A stretch of DNA of 9,373 nucleotides from IMG/VR virus record IMGVR_UViG_2695420792_000007. The stretch is one strand, 5' to 3'. The DNA comes from a virus (lineage: Duplodnaviria; Heunggongvirae; Uroviricota; Caudoviricetes). A program made the position numbers and the translations under genes. Positions 1 through 8,439 of this stretch are shown one piece after another; within the stretch, counting starts at the first letter, position 1, and every line of letters begins with the position of its first letter. The notes beneath the pieces were generated by a model. The model was given only the letters and a program-made list of their open reading frames with translations, had not been told where the DNA came from and did not search any database.

Positions 1-344
1 GCCATCATGAAAGTTAATTGCGTGTCCCGCACCTCCGCCTATATTCCCGGCAAACTGAGAAAAGTTTGTAGCTTCCTGCCAGCTTAATAATTCGCGACCA
101 CCGTCTGCACCTCGCCCGTCATCCCAGATACGAATGAAATCACCGCGGGCTTCAGGTAATACCAGCGAAGGAAACACTTTCGCCAGCACAGGATAATCAG
201 TGGCAGAGAATTTCGCGCCGTTGAACTTCAAAAACACCATACTGGACCAGCTGTCGATTACAGTATTTGGCATTGCAGCGGACGGCCAGAAGAACGGAAC
301 GCCAATAGCTGGAGCACCTTCTCCCAAACCAACGTTTAAGAAAA
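1..344 (-). CDS. Phage tail fibre variable C-terminal cassette 'a' (partial; runs off the window start; silent orientation with no upstream constant part in the window)
   Basis: Manual minus-strand translation from the crossover site down to base 1 is open with no stops: ...GLGEGAPAIGVPFFWPSAAMPNTVIDSWSSMVFLKFNGAKFSATDYPVLAKVFPSLVLPEARGDFIRIWDDGRGADGGRELLSWQEATNFSQFAGNIGGGAGHAINFHDG. This matches the phage tail-collar motif pattern of P2 H / Mu S / P1 S tail-fibre C-termini (recalled). Upstream on this strand is the antisense of the invertase leader, so no promoter or constant part is attached here. Confidence 0.7.
319..344. other. 26-bp inversion crossover site (hix/gix/cix-like), copy 1
   Basis: Sequence TTCTCCCAAACCAACGTTTAAGAAAA is an imperfect palindrome with AAACC..AA..CGTTT halves, closely resembling hixL TTCTTGAAAACCAAGGTTTTTGATAA (recalled). 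It sits directly upstream of the invertase and inside the tail-fibre reading frame, as in Mu G / P1 C / e14 P segments. Confidence 0.65.
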
Positions 345-399
345 TGCAGAGGTAACAGCTAACTGGCATCATCTCCGGTTTTTATTCAGGGGGATGATC

Positions 400-966
400 A
401 TGCTTATTGGCTATGTACGCGTGTCAACAAATGACCAGAACACCGATTTGCAACGTAATGCACTGAACTGCGCGGGATGTGAGCGGATTTTTGAGGACAA
501 AATCAGTGGCACTAAGTCCGACAGACCGGGGCTGAAAAAACTACTCAGGACACTATCGGCAGGAGACACGCTGGTTGTCTGGAAGCTGGACAGGTTGGGG
601 CGCAGTATGCGGCATCTTGTTACGCTGATAGAAGAGTTGCGCCAGCGTGGTGTGAATTTCAGAAGCCTGACTGACAGTATTGATACCAGTACCCCAATGG
701 GCCGTTTCTTTTTTCATGTCATGGGTGCCCTGGCTGAAATGGAACGCGAACTGATAGTTGAACGTACCAGGGCAGGGCTGGCTGCAGCTCGTGCCAAAGG
801 CAGAGTAGGTGGACGCCGTCCTAAGTTGACCACCGAACAGTGGGCACAGATTGGGCGTTTACTCGAGGCCGGAGAATCAAGACAGCGTATTGCACTGATT
901 TTTGATGTAGGCGTTTCTACCATTTATAGAAAATTTCCGGCAAATAAGATCAATGAATCCCCCTGA
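400..966 (+). CDS. pin: Serine DNA invertase, Gin/Hin/Cin/Pin family, copy 1
   Basis: Translation MLIGYVRVSTNDQNTDLQRNALNCAGCERIFEDK...SLTDSIDTSTPMGRFFFHVMGALAEMERELIVERT is near-identical in its N-terminal half to Gin/Pin as recalled, with the catalytic Ser in VRVSTNDQ. Start is placed at the second ATG (400) because homologues begin MLIGY and AGGGGG at 388-393 sits 6 nt upstream; the ORF track uses the ATG at 394. Confidence 0.9.
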   Translation: MLIGYVRVSTNDQNTDLQRNALNCAGCERIFEDKISGTKSDRPGLKKLLRTLSAGDTLVVWKLDRLGRSMRHLVTLIEELRQRGVNFRSLTDSIDTSTPMGRFFFHVMGALAEMERELIVERTRAGLAAARAKGRVGGRRPKLTTEQWAQIGRLLEAGESRQRIALIFDVGVSTIYRKFPANKINESP

Positions 967-1004
967 ATCAGCATTATGTTGATTATCCCTGCAAGCAGAC
1001 AAAT

Positions 1005-1022
1005 ACCGTTATTTTGTGTGAA
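1005..1022 (+). promoter_or_regulatory. TGT-N12-ACA Ogr/Delta-type activator box of a putative late promoter (PF-like) upstream of the sheath gene, copy 1
   Basis: TGTgtgaataacgacACA lies about 100 bp upstream of the FI-like start codon, where the P2 F-operon late promoter is expected. P2/P4 late promoters carry a TGT-N12-ACA element near -55 (established knowledge). The -10/-35 elements were not confidently located. Confidence 0.5.
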
Positions 1023-1108
1023 TAACGACACAACTGCGCTTAGCTGTTTGTCAGGCACAATCACTTCAACATAGGGCGAAGCCTAATCCAATCAGGAGGT
1101 TCGCCACT

Positions 1109-1282
1109 ATGGCTCAGGATTACCACCACGGGGTGCGCGTTGTTGAAGTCAACGAAGGCACCCGATCTATTACCACGGTGAGCACCGCCATCGTGGGTAT
1201 GGTCTGCACGGGCGATGATGCCGATGCAAAAATGTTTCCTCTTAATAAACCCGTGCTGATCACTGATGTGCTGACTGCCAGC
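1109..1282 (+). pseudogene. Tail sheath protein (P2 FI-like) 5' fragment, about 58 codons, copy 1
   Basis: AGGAGG at 1093-1098 precedes the ATG at 1109. [58 protein letters not shown] matches the recalled P2 FI N-terminus (MSDYHHGVQVLEINEGTR...[10 protein letters not shown]...). After 1282 the reading frame continues into the antisense of tail-fibre genes, so the 140-aa ORF in the track is not a real sheath protein. Confidence 0.75.
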
Positions 1283-1458
1283 ACTGGTTTTCCATTCAGT
1301 GTTCCAATCTGTTTTCCTGGTGGAATATCCATAAATAACTTTTTATGTTCTTCCTCACTGACTATTACACCATCATCAGGCCACAGACCTGATGCCTCAA
1401 ATTTTTCTTTCTCCGATATGGGGAAAAAGCCATTTGCTTTAGCGCTCCATACGTACAT
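1283..1458 (-). pseudogene. Tail fibre assembly chaperone (Tfa/Caudo_TAP-like) N-terminal fragment, cut at the duplication junction
   Basis: Minus-strand ATG at 1456-1458 gives [58 protein letters not shown], the characteristic N-terminus of tail-fibre assembly proteins (YxxSAKxNAFYP...WPDDAVEV, recalled). It starts 1 nt after the stop of cassette 'b'. Homology ends at 1283, where the strand becomes antisense of the sheath gene. Confidence 0.65.
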
Positions 1459-1459
1459 A

Positions 1460-1767
1460 TCAATACCCCACCGCTATAATGTCCACATTAAATCCCCCGG
1501 GACCTGCCTGCCAGATGCTGGCCCCTGTTAATGATTTTGTTTGATGAACAACCGCCACATTTGCTGGCGATTGTGTTTCAGTTGTTACAGTACCGATATC
1601 ATTCCAGTTAATTGAGATGGAATAGTTCGTTGTTGTAAACGACCGGGGGAAAGTTATGTGTCTTACATTGGTGCCAACAGGAAATCCAAGATAAACACGC
1701 TGAATTATCATTCCTCCAGGTAACATAACCCAGTTAGCACCTTCTCCCAAACCAACGTTTAAGAAAA
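1460..1767 (-). CDS. Phage tail fibre variable C-terminal cassette 'b' (silent orientation), read through crossover site copy 2
   Basis: Minus-strand frame is open from the crossover site to the TGA at 1460-1462: ...[97 protein letters not shown]. It shares the GLGEGA junction with cassette 'a' and then diverges completely, and is followed by a Tfa-type gene, as in Mu Sv-U units. The track ORF start at 1795 is an antisense artefact of the invertase leader. Confidence 0.6.
1742..1767. other. 26-bp inversion crossover site (hix/gix/cix-like), copy 2
   Basis: Same 26-bp sequence as 319-344, in direct (not inverted) orientation relative to copy 1. Confidence 0.65.
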
Positions 1768-1822
1768 TGCAGAGGTAACAGCTAACTGGCATCATCTCCG
1801 GTTTTTATTCAGGGGGATGATC

Positions 1823-2389
1823 ATGCTTATTGGCTATGTACGCGTGTCAACAAATGACCAGAACACCGATTTGCAACGTAATGCACTGAACTGCGCGGGA
1901 TGTGAGCGGATTTTTGAGGACAAAATCAGTGGCACTAAGTCCGACAGACCGGGGCTGAAAAAACTACTCAGGACACTATCGGCAGGAGACACGCTGGTTG
2001 TCTGGAAGCTGGACAGGTTGGGGCGCAGTATGCGGCATCTTGTTACGCTGATAGAAGAGTTGCGCCAGCGTGGTGTGAATTTCAGAAGCCTGACTGACAG
2101 TATTGATACCAGTACCCCAATGGGCCGTTTCTTTTTTCATGTCATGGGTGCCCTGGCTGAAATGGAACGCGAACTGATAGTTGAACGTACCAGGGCAGGG
2201 CTGGCTGCAGCTCGTGCCAAAGGCAGAGTAGGTGGACGCCGTCCTAAGTTGACCACCGAACAGTGGGCACAGATTGGGCGTTTACTCGAGGCCGGAGAAT
2301 CAAGACAGCGTATTGCACTGATTTTTGATGTAGGCGTTTCTACCATTTATAGAAAATTTCCGGCAAATAAGATCAATGAATCCCCCTGA
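1823..2389 (+). CDS. pin: Serine DNA invertase, Gin/Hin/Cin/Pin family, copy 2
   Basis: 190-aa translation in the ORF track is identical to copy 1; same start-codon reasoning (track start 1817). Confidence 0.9.
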   Translation: MLIGYVRVSTNDQNTDLQRNALNCAGCERIFEDKISGTKSDRPGLKKLLRTLSAGDTLVVWKLDRLGRSMRHLVTLIEELRQRGVNFRSLTDSIDTSTPMGRFFFHVMGALAEMERELIVERTRAGLAAARAKGRVGGRRPKLTTEQWAQIGRLLEAGESRQRIALIFDVGVSTIYRKFPANKINESP

Positions 2390-2427
2390 ATCAGCATTAT
2401 GTTGATTATCCCTGCAAGCAGACAAAT

Positions 2428-2445
2428 ACCGTTATTTTGTGTGAA
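2428..2445 (+). promoter_or_regulatory. TGT-N12-ACA Ogr/Delta-type activator box, copy 2
   Basis: Same sequence as 1005-1022, upstream of the second sheath start at 2532. Confidence 0.5.
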
Positions 2446-2531
2446 TAACGACACAACTGCGCTTAGCTGTTTGTCAGGCACAATCACTTCAACATAGGGC
2501 GAAGCCTAATCCAATCAGGAGGTTCGCCACT

Positions 2532-2915
2532 ATGGCTCAGGATTACCACCACGGGGTGCGCGTTGTTGAAGTCAACGAAGGCACCCGATCTATTACCACG
2601 GTGAGCACCGCCATCGTGGGTATGGTCTGCACGGGCGATGATGCCGATGCAAAAATGTTTCCTCTTAATAAACCCGTGCTGATCACTGATGTGCTGACTG
2701 CCAGCGGTAAAGCGGGTGAGTCAGGTACTCTGGCCCGTTCGCTGGATGCCATCGCTGACCAGGCAAAACCCGTGACCATTGTTGTGCGTGTGCCGCAGGG
2801 TGAAACGGAAGACGAAACCACGACCAATATCATCGGCGCAGTGACTGCTGAAGGTAAAAAAACAGGTATGAAAGCCCTGTTACCCGCAATATTGAACAGC
2901 TCGGTGATGCGCTGA
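2532..2915 (+). pseudogene. Tail sheath protein (P2 FI-like), truncated after about 117 codons
   Basis: [12 protein letters not shown]...[30 protein letters not shown]...[19 protein letters not shown] follows the recalled P2 FI sequence to about ...TGLKAML, then gives [10 protein letters not shown] and a stop. The ORF is 127 aa against about 396 aa recalled for P2 FI. Confidence 0.75.
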
Positions 2916-2935
2916 ACTATCTGGATGATAACGCC

Positions 2936-4984
2936 ATGTCGAAAGGGGCAGACATCATTGATGTCATGCAACGCCTGGGCGGTGTGGCTGATCGTCTGGA
3001 TTATCGTAAAGCGGCGGCGCTGGGTTCCACCTTTCTGACACTGGGCGCTGCGCCAGAGGTTGCAGCCAGTGCAGCAAACGCGATGGTGCGTGAATTGTCC
3101 ATTGCCACCATGCAAAGCAAGAGTTTCTTTGAAGGGATGAATCTGCTGAAACTCAATCCTGAAGTGATTGAAAAGCAGATGACGAAGGATGCGATGGGAA
3201 CTATCCAGCGCGTACTGGAGAAGGTGAACGCACTGCCGCAGGATAAACGTCTGTCTGCCATGACCATGTTGTTTGGTAAAGAGTTTGGCGATGACGCGGC
3301 GAAACTGGCAAACAACCTGCCGGAACTGCAGCGCCAGCTAAAACTGACAGCGGGCAATGATGCGCTCGGCTCCATGCAGAAAGAATCCGACATTAACAAG
3401 GACTCACTTTCTGCGCAGTGGTTGCTGGTCAAAACCGGAGCGCAGAACACCTTCAGCAGCCTGGGCGAAACGCTGCGCCAGCCGCTGATGGATATTCTGT
3501 ACACGGTGAAAAGCATCACGGGGGCGTTGCGCCGCTGGGTGGAAGCTAACCCGGAACTGACAGGCACACTGATGAAAGTAGCCGCTGTGGTGGCTGCGGT
3601 TACCGTAGGCCTCGGAACCTTAGCGGTGGCGCTGGCTGCAGTGCTGGGGCCGCTGGCAGTGATTCGTCTGGGATTCTCTGTGCTGGGTATCAAAACGTTA
3701 CCTTCCGTTACGGCAGCAGTAACCCGAACCAGCAGCGCGTTGTCCTGGCTGGCTGGCGCACCACTGGCACTGTTGCGACGCGGGCTTGCTTCATCGGGCA
3801 ACGCCGCAGGTTTACTTACTGCGCCGTTGTCGTCTTTGCGCCGCACGGCATTACTGACGGGAAATGTCCTGAAAACTGTAGCAGGTGCGCCGGTTGCACT
3901 TTTGCGGTCTGGATTATCCGGTTTACGTGCTGTTGCTGTGATGTTTATGAATCCTCTGGCGGTACTGCGCGGTGGACTGGCCGCCGCAGGCACGGTGCTG
4001 CGAGTACTGGCATCTGGTCCACTGGTGATGCTGCGCGTTGCCCTGTATGCCGTATCTGGTCTGTTAGGTGCTCTGCTCAGTCCGATAGGTCTTGTGGTTA
4101 CTGCACTGGCGGGCGTGGCGCTGGTTGTCTGGAAATACTGGCAACCCATCACCGCATTTCTTGGTGGCGTGGTGGAGGGATTCAAAGCGGCGGCAGGTCC
4201 CGTCAGTGAAGCATTCGAACCGCTTAAGCCCGTGTTCCAGTGGATTGGCGACAAAGTACAGGCGCTGTGGGGCTGGTTTACTGATCTGCTGACGCCCGTT
4301 AAGTCGACCTCTGCCGAACTGCAGAGTGCAGCGGCAATGGGGCGACGATTCGGGGAGGCACTGGCGGAAGGGCTAAATATGGTCATGCATCCGCTGGACT
4401 CCCTGAAATCCGGCGTTTCCTGGTTGCTGGAGAAGCTCGGCATTGTCAGTAAAGAGGTCGCAAAGGCAAAACTGCCGGAAAGCGTGACGCGTCAGCAACC
4501 TGCGACGGTGAATGCAGACGGTAAAGTGATGATGCCATCGGGTGGTTTTCCATCATGGGGATATGGCTTTGCGGGGATGTATGACAGCGGCGGGTATATC
4601 CCGCGCGGGCAGTTTGGCATCGTCGGTGAAAACGGGCCGGAAATTGTTAACGGCCCGGCAAATGTGACCAGCCGGAGAAATACAGCTGCACTGGCTGCCG
4701 TTGTTACCGGAATGATGGGAGTTGCTGCCGCGCCAGCAGAGCTTCCACCGTTGCACCCTTTGGCACTTCCCGCGAAAGGTGGAGAAGCAATTGTGAGTCG
4801 CGCAGCCACTGTGCCGCCCGTTTACAGGATTGAGGCACCGACGCAGATCATCATCCAGACGCAGCCAGGACAAAGTGCGCAGGATATTGCGCGGGAGGTG
4901 GCCCGCCAGCTTGATGAACGTGAACGCAGGCTGAAGGCAAAGGCCAGGAGTAACTACAGCGATCAGGGGGGATACGACGCATGA
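2936..4984 (+). CDS. Phage tail tape measure protein (P2 gpT-like), 5'-truncated; first in-frame ATG at 2936, frame open from 2858
   Basis: 682-aa ORF with a tape-measure-like N-region (...LGSTFLTLGAAPEVAASAANAMVRELSIATMQ...LFGKEFGDDAAKLANNLPELQRQL...), a central hydrophobic region with repeated PLxxLRxGL motifs, and a C-terminal Gly-rich end. The stop overlaps the gpU start (ATGA at 4981-4984). It is about 100+ residues shorter than the roughly 815 aa recalled for P2 T and has no RBS-equipped native start. Confidence 0.8.
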   Translation: MSKGADIIDVMQRLGGVADRLDYRKAAALGSTFLTLGAAPEVAASAANAMVRELSIATMQSKSFFEGMNLLKLNPEVIEKQMTKDAMGTIQRVLEKVNALPQDKRLSAMTMLFGKEFGDDAAKLANNLPELQRQLKLTAGNDALGSMQKESDINKDSLSAQWLLVKTGAQNTFSSLGETLRQPLMDILYTVKSITGALRRWVEANPELTGTLMKVAAVVAAVTVGLGTLAVALAAVLGPLAVIRLGFSVLGIKTLPSVTAAVTRTSSALSWLAGAPLALLRRGLASSGNAAGLLTAPLSSLRRTALLTGNVLKTVAGAPVALLRSGLSGLRAVAVMFMNPLAVLRGGLAAAGTVLRVLASGPLVMLRVALYAVSGLLGALLSPIGLVVTALAGVALVVWKYWQPITAFLGGVVEGFKAAAGPVSEAFEPLKPVFQWIGDKVQALWGWFTDLLTPVKSTSAELQSAAAMGRRFGEALAEGLNMVMHPLDSLKSGVSWLLEKLGIVSKEVAKAKLPESVTRQQPATVNADGKVMMPSGGFPSWGYGFAGMYDSGGYIPRGQFGIVGENGPEIVNGPANVTSRRNTAALAAVVTGMMGVAAAPAELPPLHPLALPAKGGEAIVSRAATVPPVYRIEAPTQIIIQTQPGQSAQDIAREVARQLDERERRLKAKARSNYSDQGGYDA

Positions 4985-5466
4985 TGATGGTGCTGGGATT
5001 GTACGTGTTTATGCTGCGCACCGTGCCGTATCAGGAACTGCAGTATCAGCGCAGCTGGCGACATGCGGCTAACAGCCGGGTAAATCGTCGTCCGTCCACG
5101 CAGTTTCTGGGACCGGACAACGACATGCTGACGCTTTCCGGTGTTCTTATGCCGGAGATAACAGGCGGCAGGCTGTCGTTGCTGGCACTGGAGCAGATGG
5201 CAGAACAGGGGAAAGCATGGCCTCTGATTGAAGGCAGCGGCACGATTTACGGCATGTATGTGATTGAGGGACTGAATCAGACTAAAACGGAGTTTTTCCG
5301 CGACGGTATGCCGCGCCGGATTGAGTTCACCCTGTCGCTCAAACGGGTGGATGAATCCCTGTCCGATATGTTCGGTGATCTCAGTGCGCAGCTGAATAAT
5401 CTGCAGGGAACGGCAACATCAGCCTTAAGCGATATCAGTAAAACGGTGGGAGGGCTTCTGTCGTGA
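4981..5466 (+). CDS. Phage tail protein gpU-like
   Basis: 161 aa, MMMVLGLYVFMLRTVPYQELQYQRSWRH..., matches the recalled P2 gpU N-terminus and length (about 159 aa). Start overlaps the T stop and the stop overlaps the D start (GTGA), indicating translational coupling in the F operon order T-U-D. Confidence 0.85.
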   Translation: MMMVLGLYVFMLRTVPYQELQYQRSWRHAANSRVNRRPSTQFLGPDNDMLTLSGVLMPEITGGRLSLLALEQMAEQGKAWPLIEGSGTIYGMYVIEGLNQTKTEFFRDGMPRRIEFTLSLKRVDESLSDMFGDLSAQLNNLQGTATSALSDISKTVGGLLS

Positions 5467-6209
5467 ATTTCAGCTCTGAACTGCTTAACAAAGGCAACAA
5501 AACTCCGGCATTCAGCATCAGTATTGAAGGCAGGGATATCACCACTGTGCTGGACAACCGCCTGATGGGGCTGACGCTGACGGATAACCGGGGATTTGAA
5601 GCGGACCAGCTTGATCTGGAGCTGGACGACGCCGATGGAAAAATCGTGCTGCCGCGCCGTGGTGCGGTCATTACGCTGGCGCTGGGCTGGAAGGGGCAGC
5701 CGCTTTTCCCGAAAGGGGCATTCACGGTGGACGAGATTGAACACACTGGCGCACCGGACCGCCTGACTATCCGGGCGCGAAGTGCTGATTTTCGGGAAAC
5801 CCTGAATACCCGCGAACCTGCGAAGAAAGAAAGCACCACGGTGAAGCGTAAGCGCAGAACTAAGAAGCAGAAGAAAGAGCCAGAAGCGAAGCAGGGCGAT
5901 TACCTGGTGGGTACGGATGAAAACGTGCTGGTACTTAATCGCACTTATGCCAACCGGAGCAACGCCGAACGAGCGGCGAAAATGCAGTGGGAACGCCTGC
6001 AACGCGGCGTTGCGTCATTCTCGCTACAACTGGCAGAAGGGCGGGCAGATCTCTACACGGAAATGCCAGTGAAAGTCAGTGGCTTTAAACAGCCGATAGA
6101 TGATGCGGAATGGACCATTACGACTCTGACGCATACCGTCAGCCCGGATAACGGTTTTACGACCAGTCTGGAGCTTGAAGTGAGGATTGATGATTTCGAA
6201 ATGGAATGA
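5463..6209 (+). CDS. Phage tail protein gpD-like (late gene D), apparently shortened by an internal in-frame deletion
   Basis: 248 aa from a GTG start. N-terminal (...LTDNRGFEADQLDLELDDADG...VDEIEHTGAPDRLTIRARSADFRETLN) and C-terminal (...WERLQRGVASFSLQLAEGRADLYTEMPVKVSGFK...GFTTSLELEVR) regions match recalled P2 gpD, but the protein is about 140 aa shorter than the roughly 387 aa recalled. Confidence 0.75.
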   Translation: MNFSSELLNKGNKTPAFSISIEGRDITTVLDNRLMGLTLTDNRGFEADQLDLELDDADGKIVLPRRGAVITLALGWKGQPLFPKGAFTVDEIEHTGAPDRLTIRARSADFRETLNTREPAKKESTTVKRKRRTKKQKKEPEAKQGDYLVGTDENVLVLNRTYANRSNAERAAKMQWERLQRGVASFSLQLAEGRADLYTEMPVKVSGFKQPIDDAEWTITTLTHTVSPDNGFTTSLELEVRIDDFEME

Positions 6210-6299
6210 TTCTTCGCAATGGAGAACTTTTAAGTTTGCAAAATGGAATAATGCGGTATCATTATTGTGAATTTAGCAAAAATGGGGAGAACTCGAAAA

Positions 6300-6518
6300 A
6301 TGATGATTTGCCCACTGTGTGGAAGTGCCGCCCATACTCGCAGCAGTTTTCAGGTATCTTCATTGACCAAAGAGCGTTACAACCAGTGCCAGAACATTAA
6401 CTGCAGCCATACTTTTGTTACCCATGAAACTTTTGTTCGTTCGATTGCAACGCCAAAAGAGTCAAATCCGGTTCAGCCGCATCCAATGAAATCAGGACAG
6501 GTGGCGCTCTCTCTTTGA
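6300..6518 (+). CDS. ogr: Ogr/Delta-family zinc-finger late transcription activator
   Basis: MMICPLCGSAAHTRSSFQVSSLTKERYNQCQNINCSHTFVTHETFVRSIATPKESNPVQPHPMKSGQ... has the CxxC...CxxxxC zinc-binding pattern and matches recalled P2 Ogr (72 aa, ...CPLCQHAAHARTS...KERYHQCQNVNCSATF...RPHP...SGQ). GGGGAGA at 6284-6290 sits 9 nt upstream of the ATG at 6300; the track's 83-aa ORF starts at an upstream GTG (6267) that is probably not used. Confidence 0.85.
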   Translation: MMICPLCGSAAHTRSSFQVSSLTKERYNQCQNINCSHTFVTHETFVRSIATPKESNPVQPHPMKSGQVALSL

Positions 6519-6598
6519 CGCTGCCGCCATTTTGTCGCCATCGTTAAAAAACAGTGTTTCTAACATCATGATTTTAAACAGCTTAAATTTCAGGCAAC

Positions 6599-6641
6599 AA
6601 AAAACCCATCAACCTTGAACCGAAATGGCGGGGTTGATGGG
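6599..6641 (-). terminator. Putative rho-independent terminator for leftward transcription (ybjL), or att-associated hairpin
   Basis: A 10-bp inverted repeat, CCCATCAACC (6605-6614) and GGTTGATGGG (6632-6641), encloses a 17-nt loop and is preceded on the plus strand by A6 (6599-6604), giving a U-tract after the stem on the minus strand. It lies about 110 nt downstream of the ybjL stop, so the assignment is uncertain. Confidence 0.4.
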
Positions 6642-6753
6642 CTCCACAAAATGGGGACATCAAAGAAAAGCAGTGGCACTAATTAAGACTGATGCCCTGC
6701 GGAAAAGTTCTGCGGTTGTGCAAAAAAATTTCATTTTCAGGGCAACTTCAGTT

Positions 6754-8439
6754 TTATCCTAATCCTGGCCATACCATGACGATGATTGTCCCTGCCAGCG
6801 TCAGCAGGACGTTGGCGATTGCATAGGTGCCCGCATAGCCCAGCGCCGGGATGTTACTGCGAGCTGTATCACTGATGATCTCCATTGCCGGCGCGCAGGT
6901 ACGTGCGCCCATCATTGCGCCGAACAACAGCGCGCGGTTCATTCGCAATACATAAGCACCGAACAAGAAACAGATAACCACGGGCACCAGACTGACAATC
7001 AATCCGGCAATCAACATCTGACCGCCAATCGCGCCCAGGCCGTTATTAATACCGCTACCGGCGCTCAGACCAACGCCTGCCATAAACACCATCAAGCCGA
7101 ACTCTTTCACCATGCTTAATGCACCCTGCGGAATGTAACCGAAGGTCGGGTGGTTAGCACGCATAAAGCCCAGCATAATTCCGGCGAATAACAACCCGGC
7201 AGCGTTCCCCATGCCGAAACTGAATGTGCTGAACTGGAAGGTGATCATCCCGATCATCAGCCCAATAACAAAGAAGGCGCAGAATGCCAGCAGGTCAGTG
7301 ACCTGGCTGTGAATCGAGATAAAGCCGATGCGATCGGCGATGGTTTTTACGCGGCGGGCATCGCCGCTGACTTGTAAAACGTCACCTTTGTTAAGCACGA
7401 CGTTGTCATCTATCGGCATCTCAATCTGGCTACGAATGACGCGGTTAAGGAAGCAACCGTGATCGGTCAACTTCAGTTGTGCGAGACGTTTACCTACAGC
7501 GTTATGGTTTTTAACGACCACTTCTTCAGTGACGATACGCATGTCGAGAAGGTCACGATCGAAAACTTCTTTACCGTTACGGAAGCTGGGATCGAGTCGG
7601 GCATGGGCGTCGGGATAGCCTACCAACGCTATTTCATCGCCCATTTGTAGCACGGCATCACCGTCTGGATTTGCCAGAATCCCGTTACGTCGAATACGTT
7701 CAATGTAGCAGCCGGTTTGTCGATAAATACCCAGTTCACGCAGATTTTTGCCGTCGGTCCAGGCCACCAGTTCCGGGCCGACGCGATAGGCGCGGATCAC
7801 CGGTAAATAAACCTTACGGTTGGCATCAGTGTCCAGGCCACGTTCGCGGGCGATTTGCTGGGCGCTGGTCTGTAAGTCCTGATGCTGCAATTTCGGCAAG
7901 TAACGCGCACCAACAATCAAACTCACCAGACCGATTAAATAGGTTAAGGCATACCCGAGGCTCAGATTATCCAGTGCCAGTGAGAGCTGCCTGCTTTCCA
8001 TGCCGGAATGACGCAGTGTATCGCCAGCACCGACCAGAACCGGTGTCGACGTCATAGAGCCTGCTAACATACCGGCCGTCAGGCCAATATCCCAGCCAAA
8101 CAGCTTACCTAACCCTAAGGCGATCACCAGCGCACTGCCAACCATCACCAGTGCTAACATTAGGTAATTTTTCCCATCGCGAAAAAAAATGGAAAAAAAG
8201 TTCGGTCCGGCTTCGACCCCGACGCAGAAAATAAACAGCATAAAGCCAAGATTAAGCGCATCGGTGTTAATGCTGAAATGTTGTTGGCCTAATAACAGCG
8301 ATACGACTAAAACGCCAATGGAATTACCCAGTTGGATCGAACCAAGTCGTAACTTTCCGAGACATAGCCCAAGCGCGAGGACCACAAATAATAACAGAAT
8401 GTAATTCCCATTTAACAATTCGGCGACGTTTATATTCAC
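6754..8439 (-). CDS. ybjL: Putative transport protein YbjL (AAE/YidE-family membrane transporter with central TrkA-C-like domains)
   Basis: 561-aa ORF from a GTG start ([24 protein letters not shown]...VMVWPGLG) with hydrophobic N- and C-terminal halves around a soluble central region. Sequence, length and the ybjL-ybjM-grxA neighbourhood match E. coli YbjL as recalled. Confidence 0.9.

Follow-up and report, generated by a model that had tools for sequence, protein, structure and literature searches.

An invertase-bearing direct duplication in a draft Escherichia coli prophage is very probably a scaffolding artefact at an ordinary tail-fibre switch

The window analysed here, a stretch of 9,373 nucleotides at the end of the draft E. 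coli record CYEH01000023.1 (GCA_001284685.2), carries the same invertase-bearing unit twice in direct orientation, each copy preceded by a different silent tail-fibre cassette. Does this genome hold two recombinase genes in tandem, or has a single locus been written twice by the assembly? Based on the evidence presented below, the 970-bp tandem duplication is very probably not real in the genome. A literature search by assembly and run accessions found no paper on this assembly.

An exact repeat of 970 bp

Self-comparison of the window revealed a single maximal stretch of identity, offset by 1423, in which positions 313-1282 equal positions 1736-2705 over 970 bp with 0 mismatches, as the earlier note had claimed from the letters alone; a chance origin of such a repeat is impossible. 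The content that it had assigned to the unit was recovered by ORF, Pfam and pattern matches, each copy starting with a crossover site, followed by the Gin-like invertase, the late-promoter dyad and the 5' end (58 codons) of a sheath gene. The TGT-N12-ACA dyad is presumably an Ogr/Delta-type late-promoter box, an assignment that we take from published knowledge of P2 late promoters. The flanks were also as described, with cassette 'a' before copy 1 and cassette 'b' plus a Tfa N-terminus before copy 2. The window is organized as follows:

1..312, minus strand: silent tail-fibre C-terminal cassette 'a', running off the window (CYEH01000023.1 ends 1 base further left)
313..1282, plus strand: copy 1 of the 970-bp unit, 100% identical to 1736-2705, ending at the record's N
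319..344: crossover site of copy 1, a 12-bp half-site, an AA core at 331-332 and a 12-bp half-site (exact pattern match)
394..966, plus strand: Gin/Cin/Pin-type serine DNA invertase of copy 1 (Pfam and Gin structure matches)
1015..1032, plus strand: TGT-N12-ACA dyad upstream of the sheath gene, copy 1 (pattern match)
1109..1282, plus strand: 5' end (58 codons) of the FI-like sheath gene, copy 1, interrupted by the scaffold gap
1283: scaffold gap, 'N' in CYEH01000023.1 (position 1284) and 'A' in the window
1284..1458, minus strand: first 58 codons of the tail-fibre assembly gene tfa_b, presumed left end of the b-state contig
1460..1735, minus strand: silent tail-fibre C-terminal cassette 'b' (Pfam Gp53-like_C, 6.8e-06)
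1736..2705, plus strand: copy 2 of the 970-bp unit, both flanks contiguous in CYEH01000023.1, with its site at 1742-1767, invertase at 1817-2389, dyad at 2438-2455 and sheath start at 2532
2532..2915, plus strand: truncated sheath ORF, 127 aa (BLAST against the intact prophages L006 and L016)
2936..6518, plus strand: remainder of the P2-like tail and late-control block, followed by host ybjL
2936-4984, plus strand: tape-measure remnant
4981-5466, plus strand: gpU
5463-6209, plus strand: gpD, with an in-frame 354-bp deletion
6267-6518, plus strand: ogr

The minus-strand translation of cassette 'a' is a tail-fibre C-terminus, with a weak Collar match in Pfam, and the tfa_b fragment at 1284-1458 is collinear with the 142-aa Tfa gene of two intact relatives, L001 (8747-9175) and L016. 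The ORF of cassette 'b' (1460-1795) continues through the crossover site.

A textbook inversion switch in a decayed P2-like prophage

At 190 aa, the uninterrupted invertase ORF has the architecture of a Din-family recombinase, with an N-terminal resolvase catalytic domain (Pfam Resolvase, 2.3e-53) and a C-terminal HTH (HTH_7, 1.5e-15); its residues 3-186 match the Mu Gin structures 3UJ3 and 4M6F at an E value of 1e-92. The 26-bp crossover site reads TTCTCCCAAACC-AA-CGTTTAAGAAAA in both copies. Its natural setting can be read in L016, an intact P2-like prophage beside ybjL, the site that the window prophage also occupies. Window segments 1-312 (A) and 1284-1735 (B, which includes cassette 'b') are identical to L016 over 312/312 and 452/452 positions, respectively, and there make up the two ends, in opposing orientations, of a single invertible segment of 1,708 bp. 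B is the invertase-proximal end, while cassette 'a' lies at the distal end in the opposite orientation, fused to the H tail-fibre gene. L001 is arranged likewise, a 32-nt inverted repeat marking its sites, with arms 1,708 nt apart. In both relatives, the two 26-bp sites share an identical 2-bp core and are inverted, and the alternative tail-fibre C-termini 'a' and 'b', with their cognate assembly genes (encoding 197-aa and 142-aa Tfa), face each other inside the segment. Cassette 'b' is proximal in L001 and L016 and cassette 'a' in L002 and L007, so that both orientations occur among the relatives. The joint between 'a' and the repeated unit (R) in the window consists of A, AGCACCTTCTCCCAAACC-AA-CGTTTAAGAAAA and R, which is the exact recombinant of the distal and proximal sites of L016 exchanged at the AA core. 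These comparisons uphold the proposal that the two left flanks are the alternative neighbours of the invertase-proximal site.

The locus thus shares with the Gin/Cin/Pin/Hin (Din-family) switches of the Mu G, P1 C and e14 P segments a small serine invertase adjoining the segment, inverted 26-bp sites with a 2-bp core (as seen in the intact relatives), and two alternative tail-fibre C-termini placed face to face, each with its own assembly gene. There is no biological difference from the Mu and P1 switches, except that the backbone is P2-like. The tail-fibre switch itself is already known, a textbook invertible segment in a common P2-like prophage, and its layout on this backbone recurs across hundreds of complete E. 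coli genomes. Unlike the inverted sites of Din-family switches, the direct-repeat arrangement of the window is very probably no property of the locus: only the proximal site is seen in the window, and its directly oriented second copy belongs to the block that we regard as artefactual.

The backbone has the P2-like order FI-FII-E-T-U-D, with ogr by the attachment site, according to Pfam and to collinearity with L006 and L016 except for two deletions. Among 5,426 complete E. coli genomes, 826 match at least 80% of window 2400-7400, with a P2-like prophage beside ybjL in every listed top match. As in other P2-like (Peduovirus-type) prophages at this site, sheath, tape measure, gpU, gpD and ogr are followed by ybjL-ybjM-grxA. 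Compared with its intact counterparts, the window copy is decayed, lacking 354 bp of gpD and about 2.8 kb further upstream. BLAST comparison with L006 and L016 placed this larger deletion at 2881/2882, where it fuses the sheath gene to the tape-measure gene; what is lost is the bulk of the sheath gene, together with the tube gene, E/E' and the initial third of the tape-measure gene. The best matches left and right of 2882 differ, and a second false join at this point was considered; it was rejected, as there is no N and the joint, like the truncated sheath ORF, also occurs in the independent Logan assembly of the reads (see below).

The join at base 1283

In 9,373 bases, the window and CYEH01000023.1 differ once: the 'A' at window 1283 is an 'N' at position 1284 of the record. 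No other non-ACGT base occurs within the record's initial 16,210 bases, and the N coincides exactly with the right boundary of copy 1, between the sheath start and the Tfa fragment (GCCAGC-(N)-CTGGTTTTCC). The native base at this point is G in both parent contexts, and neither has A. The only join that creates the duplication was therefore never sequenced. Two earlier ideas fell with this observation. An overlap of 4-5 bases between the BLAST matches, first taken as microhomology, was dropped once the N was found, and a half-site-like stretch, GGTTTTCC, evaluated as a pseudo-crossover site, had any core outside the join and became moot.

Database searches gave the join no counterpart elsewhere. 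A 140-bp probe found no place with at least 80% coverage in the 5,426 complete E. coli genomes, where its matches split at the join, and no join-spanning protein was detected in a collection of 15 billion proteins. Exact look-ups of the two join-spanning ORFs returned no match, as expected given that the ORF of the record contains the N, and a search with the 140-aa fusion ORF retrieved only sheath N-termini (41-59% coverage), none across the join.

An independent k-mer assembly of the reads was available as Logan contig ERR178192_76 (16,425 bp). It starts at window 1900, shows 0 mismatches over the 1,656 bases retrieved (1900-3555), and runs for about 16.4 kb, crossing 2705|2706 unbroken. The read graph thus has no second exit at the right edge of copy 2, where the contig would have been interrupted if the repeat truly also led into tfa_b. 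The earlier note had left open a misassembly or a real rearrangement. The first is favoured and the second disfavoured, owing to the N at the join, the unbranched read assembly and the absence of the join from complete E. coli genomes and proteins.

We consider it highly probable (about 87%) that a single locus, present in both orientations in the sequenced DNA, was misrepresented when a scaffolder set an a-state path ahead of the b-state contig. The genome would then contain one copy of the site, invertase, late promoter and sheath start, in the decayed prophage by ybjL, as part of an ordinary Gin/Cin/Pin-type switch with two inverted 26-bp sites around a segment of about 1.7 kb bearing cassette a and tfa_a at one end and cassette b and tfa_b at the other. 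Through ongoing inversion, the sequenced culture would have held both orientations, so that reads would have supported both a-to-invertase and b-to-invertase connections; here, the distal site and the presence of both states in the reads are deduced from the intact relatives and the recombinant joint. A short-read pipeline may have assembled the b-state as the main contig (1284 onward) and retained a short side path for the a-state (1-312), extended by 970 bp into the invertase region. Read pairs, presumably handled by a scaffolder plus a gap filler, would have joined the two blocks, leaving a single N where no overlap was found. Since this N is rendered as 'A' in the window, the scaffold looked like a continuous tandem duplication. 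Copy 2 (1736-2705) is the genuine genomic copy, whereas copy 1 is most likely the a-state path built by contig extension or gap filling, with no second genomic copy behind it. Because no recombination site coincides with the sheath/tfa joint, which was also never read, the error is a false join by scaffolding or gap filling rather than a wrong route through sequenced joints.

Published pipelines of this kind use read pairs to link contigs, place N between them and then lengthen the contig ends on each side; their authors caution against the false joins that these greedy tools produce (PMC5320598). In GapFiller, the contig ends are extended from either side of a gap, which is closed only where the two extensions overlap (PMC3446322). 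Two traits of the record resemble artefacts of SSPACE/GapFiller-type improvement of Velvet assemblies, namely a residual N between blocks sharing a long identical stretch and a short side path extended into sequence already in the main contig.

Other origins of the second copy and their implications

An artefact could also have arisen from two loci, the a-state path coming from a second P2-like prophage or remnant with 'a' proximal instead of from inversion at the ybjL locus. We regard this origin as unlikely. This region is matched at several positions in many E. coli genomes (median 2, maximum 10), and prophages integrated elsewhere, such as L002 at ssrA and L008 near dcm, carry the 970-bp unit with 100% identity. 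Furthermore, ERR178192_76 ends at 1900, inside the invertase gene and not at the crossover site. This extra branch in the read graph means that other genomic sequence shares k-mers with the invertase gene, and a second invertase-bearing locus could have contributed the a-state path. However, generic invertase paralogues such as pinE (about 88% identity) could account for the branch, a second sheath start would be expected to branch at or before the 2882 joint, where the Logan contig is unbroken (1900-3555 and beyond), and A and B each match, at 100%, the two ends of one L016 segment at the same site.

Even less probable is a genuine rearrangement, in which a 1,423-bp block (the tfa_b start, cassette b, the site, the invertase and the sheath start) was first duplicated in tandem, after which the distal site recombined with the first of the proximal sites in an inversion, or, equivalently, sister chromosomes in opposite states underwent illegitimate exchange, the N being one unresolved base. 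The prophage would then possess a second, identical invertase gene and a second proximal site oriented like the first, in addition to the inverted distal site, a configuration to which we give very little credence. By sequence logic, duplication followed by inversion would yield precisely the arrangement of parts found in the window, the native G on both sides of the join would allow a 1-base overlap, and Logan graph cleaning could hide a junction found only in a minority of cells. Nevertheless, the duplication-and-inversion model was abandoned because the record has an N at the join. A genuine duplication calls for a novel joint that is sequenced and read through, and reads covering a fixed junction would have allowed it to be assembled or closed with no N left; here, 2705|2706 shows no branch in the independent assembly, the join recurs in none of the genomes and proteins searched, and the chance that the sole N in 16 kb would fall on an unrelated repeat edge is about 4 in 16,000. 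If the duplication were true, the invertase could invert a short or a long segment or delete a 1.4-kb unit, and the locus would offer a Gin-type enzyme a natural substrate with three sites.

With a false join at a single switch as the preferred reading, the biological weight of the locus is small, the underlying switch being the textbook segment of a common P2-like prophage. The case is instructive for genome mining, since phase-variable segments in scaffolded short-read assemblies can mimic the duplication of a recombinase, and an N silently turned into a base conceals the sole clue. Gap characters should be checked first when draft genomes are scanned for duplicated recombinases or unusual site arrangements. 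As a minor observation, the presence of the a-state joint suggests that the invertase is still active in a prophage stripped of most of its tail genes.

An exact direct repeat around an invertase gene

Self-comparison of the window revealed that positions 313-1282 and 1736-2705 are identical over 970 bp with no mismatch, this being the sole maximal identical stretch, with the copies offset by 1,423 bases. The exact direct repeat proposed in the earlier note was thus borne out, and its account of each unit (crossover site, invertase, dyad and sheath start, flanked by cassette a or by cassette b plus the start of a Tfa gene) proved accurate on the basis of the ORF, Pfam and pattern results.

Features of the two copies and their left flanks
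1-312, minus strand: tail-fibre C-terminal cassette a, left flank of copy 1
1284-1458: first 58 codons of the tail-fibre assembly gene tfa_b, left of copy 2, with cassette b
1460-1735, minus strand: tail-fibre C-terminal cassette b, left flank of copy 2
319-344 and 1742-1767: 26-bp site TTCTCCCAAACC-AA-CGTTTAAGAAAA, one per copy (pattern match)
394-966 and 1817-2389: serine recombinase ORF, 190 aa, one per copy (Pfam Resolvase and HTH_7)
1015-1032 and 2438-2455: TGT-N12-ACA dyad, one per copy (pattern match)
End of each copy: first 58 codons of the sheath gene

The 190-aa recombinase matches the Mu Gin structures 3UJ3 and 4M6F (E about 1e-92). The TGT-N12-ACA form is that of Ogr-dependent P2 late promoters, and the two dyads are putative late promoters on this basis. 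Besides the site-encoded motif, both cassettes contain short similar stretches (ATCATGAAAGTTAATTG and ATCATTCCAGTTAATTG, window 1-20 and 1598-1614), which may reflect a structural feature conserved at the fibre tip.

Two orientations of a tail-fibre switch

An intact P2-like prophage adjoining ybjL (L016, GCA_047619605.1) contains window 1-312 (312/312 identical) and 1284-1735 (452/452) at the two ends of a single 1,708-bp segment, in opposite orientations: cassette b adjoins the invertase, and the H tail-fibre gene is fused to cassette a. The same a/b layout occurs at another integration site in L001, where the arms, separated by 1,708 nt, form a 32-nt inverted repeat. In L016, the proximal site, on the invertase side, reads AGCACCTTCTCCCAAACC-AA-CGTTTAAGAAAA and the distal site AGCACCTTCTCCCAAACC-AA-GGTATGTGAGAA; the window joint between cassette a and the invertase combines the distal left half with the proximal right half, swapped at the AA core. 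Thus, the joint placing cassette a beside the invertase (a-state) genuinely results from site-specific inversion, that with cassette b (b-state) being the unflipped form, and both joints are present within one assembly. Carried on a P2-like backbone, the locus belongs to the Gin/Cin/Pin/Hin group of tail-fibre inversion switches, with which it shares the recombinase type, the structure and orientation of the sites, the pairing of cassettes with assembly genes, and the occurrence of both states.

The join at position 1283

Three strain-specific proteins (a tape-measure remnant of 682 aa, a gpD of 248 aa and a sheath fragment of 127 aa) identify the public counterpart of the window as record CYEH01000023.1 (92,182 bp) of the draft E. 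coli assembly GCA_001284685.2, the window starting one base from the end of this record. Base-by-base comparison over 9,373 positions revealed one difference: window 1283 is an A where the record (position 1284) has an N, the only non-ACGT character in its first 16,210 bases. This N is the single position separating the end of copy 1 (1282) from the start of the tfa_b fragment (1284); thus, the only join that makes the duplication was never sequenced and is a scaffold join. As the native base is G in both parent contexts, the A stands in for N and does not derive from reads. Gap characters were apparently turned into a base during preparation of the window, a conversion through which scaffold joins escape anyone reading the raw sequence.

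An independent read assembly (Logan, ERR178192) provided contig ERR178192_76 (16,425 bp), which likewise carries all three of these strain-specific proteins. It starts at window 1900, is identical over all 1,656 bases retrieved (1900-3555) and, judged from its size, spans some 16.4 kb from that point, crossing both the right edge of copy 2 (2705/2706) and a deletion joint at 2882 unbroken. A real second exit into tfa_b at normal coverage would break a k-mer-graph contig at 2705/2706, so that the absence of a break counts against the duplication; the same argument excludes a duplication that truly ends, on its right, within the following ~16 kb. A probe of 140 bp spanning the join found no place with 80% coverage in 5,426 complete E. 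coli genomes, its matches ending at the join from both sides. ORFs crossing the join were absent from a 15-billion-protein collection, and the 140-aa fusion ORF, used as a query for homologues, retrieved sheath N-termini only, with nothing across the join.

The earlier note had also offered misassembly of a phase-variable locus as an explanation, which is supported by the N, the unbranched Logan contig and the absence of the join from the 5,426 genomes. The direct-repeat, two-invertase arrangement is not present in the genome itself; we place the probability that the duplication is an artefact and not a real feature at about 0.94, with 0.87 of this total assigned to a single locus. The sequenced DNA would then have been a mix of both orientations of that locus. 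The b-state may have been built as the main contig, its start lying within tfa_b, probably at the boundary of a repeat common to other tail-fibre assembly genes, with cassette a left as a short separate piece. Read pairs from the a-state would tie this piece to the invertase region, leading the scaffolder to set it ahead of the main contig; extension of its end would have copied 970 bp of the invertase region and, with no overlap with tfa_b found, a single N would remain. Published scaffolding and gap-filling pipelines, cited here as a candidate type only, link contigs through read pairs with N and then lengthen the contig ends from both sides (PMC5320598; PMC3446322), and the authors of one such pipeline warn of false joins (PMC5320598).

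Possibly, the a-state path stems from a second prophage, as the 970-bp unit is also found, fully identical, in prophages integrated at sites other than ybjL and the Logan contig points to another related invertase sequence: it ends at 1900 (477 in copy 1), inside the invertase gene and not at the crossover site, which indicates that k-mers of the 5' part of this gene are common to another sequence in the genome. Candidate sources of that sequence are a pin-type paralogue and a second P2-like prophage. However, ordinary invertase paralogues such as pinE (~88% identical) may account for this branch, both flanks match one segment at this same ybjL site perfectly in L016, and the sheath start, which a second prophage would share, shows no branch in the Logan contig. 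A real duplication followed by inversion, in line with the rearrangement option of the earlier note, would yield exactly this order of parts but conflicts with the N, with a read graph that has no branch at the right edge of the repeat and with a join found nowhere else in complete E. coli genomes or the protein collection.

A decayed P2-like prophage at ybjL

At least 80% of window 2400-7400 is matched in 826 of the 5,426 complete E. coli genomes, and in all top matches listed for this query ybjL is adjoined by a P2-like prophage whose tail operon is intact; the window therefore holds a decayed copy of a common prophage. In the sheath ORF of this copy, ~117 codons remain before a ~2.8-kb deletion that leads into the tape-measure gene (joint 2881/2882). 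Lost with it are the bulk of the sheath gene, the tube gene, E/E' and the first third of T; the deletion is real, since the same joint is present in the Logan contig. The tape-measure remnant is followed by gpU, gpD and ogr, then by host ybjL, ybjM and grxA. gpD has an in-frame 354-bp (118-codon) deletion at window 5803-5813, giving 248 aa versus 366; its ends overlap by 8-11 bases in BLAST alignments, which suggests a short direct repeat. As 248-aa gpD variants occur in a few other E. coli assemblies, this deletion may predate the strain.

Left of the deletion joint (1736-2882), the best match was L002, a prophage at ssrA (100%), with 98.5% for L006, the ybjL prophage of E. coli FORC_081 and top match in the 2400-7400 search. 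The order is reversed on the right (2882-5813; L006 99.7%, L002 97.2%), and the corresponding values for L016 at ybjL are 99.9% (left) and 96.9% (right). This switch of best match across 2882 looks like ordinary mosaicism among P2-like prophages. In L006, an IS26 copy (6596-7990) splits the invertase gene, an insertion that would lock the tail-fibre switch in a single state.
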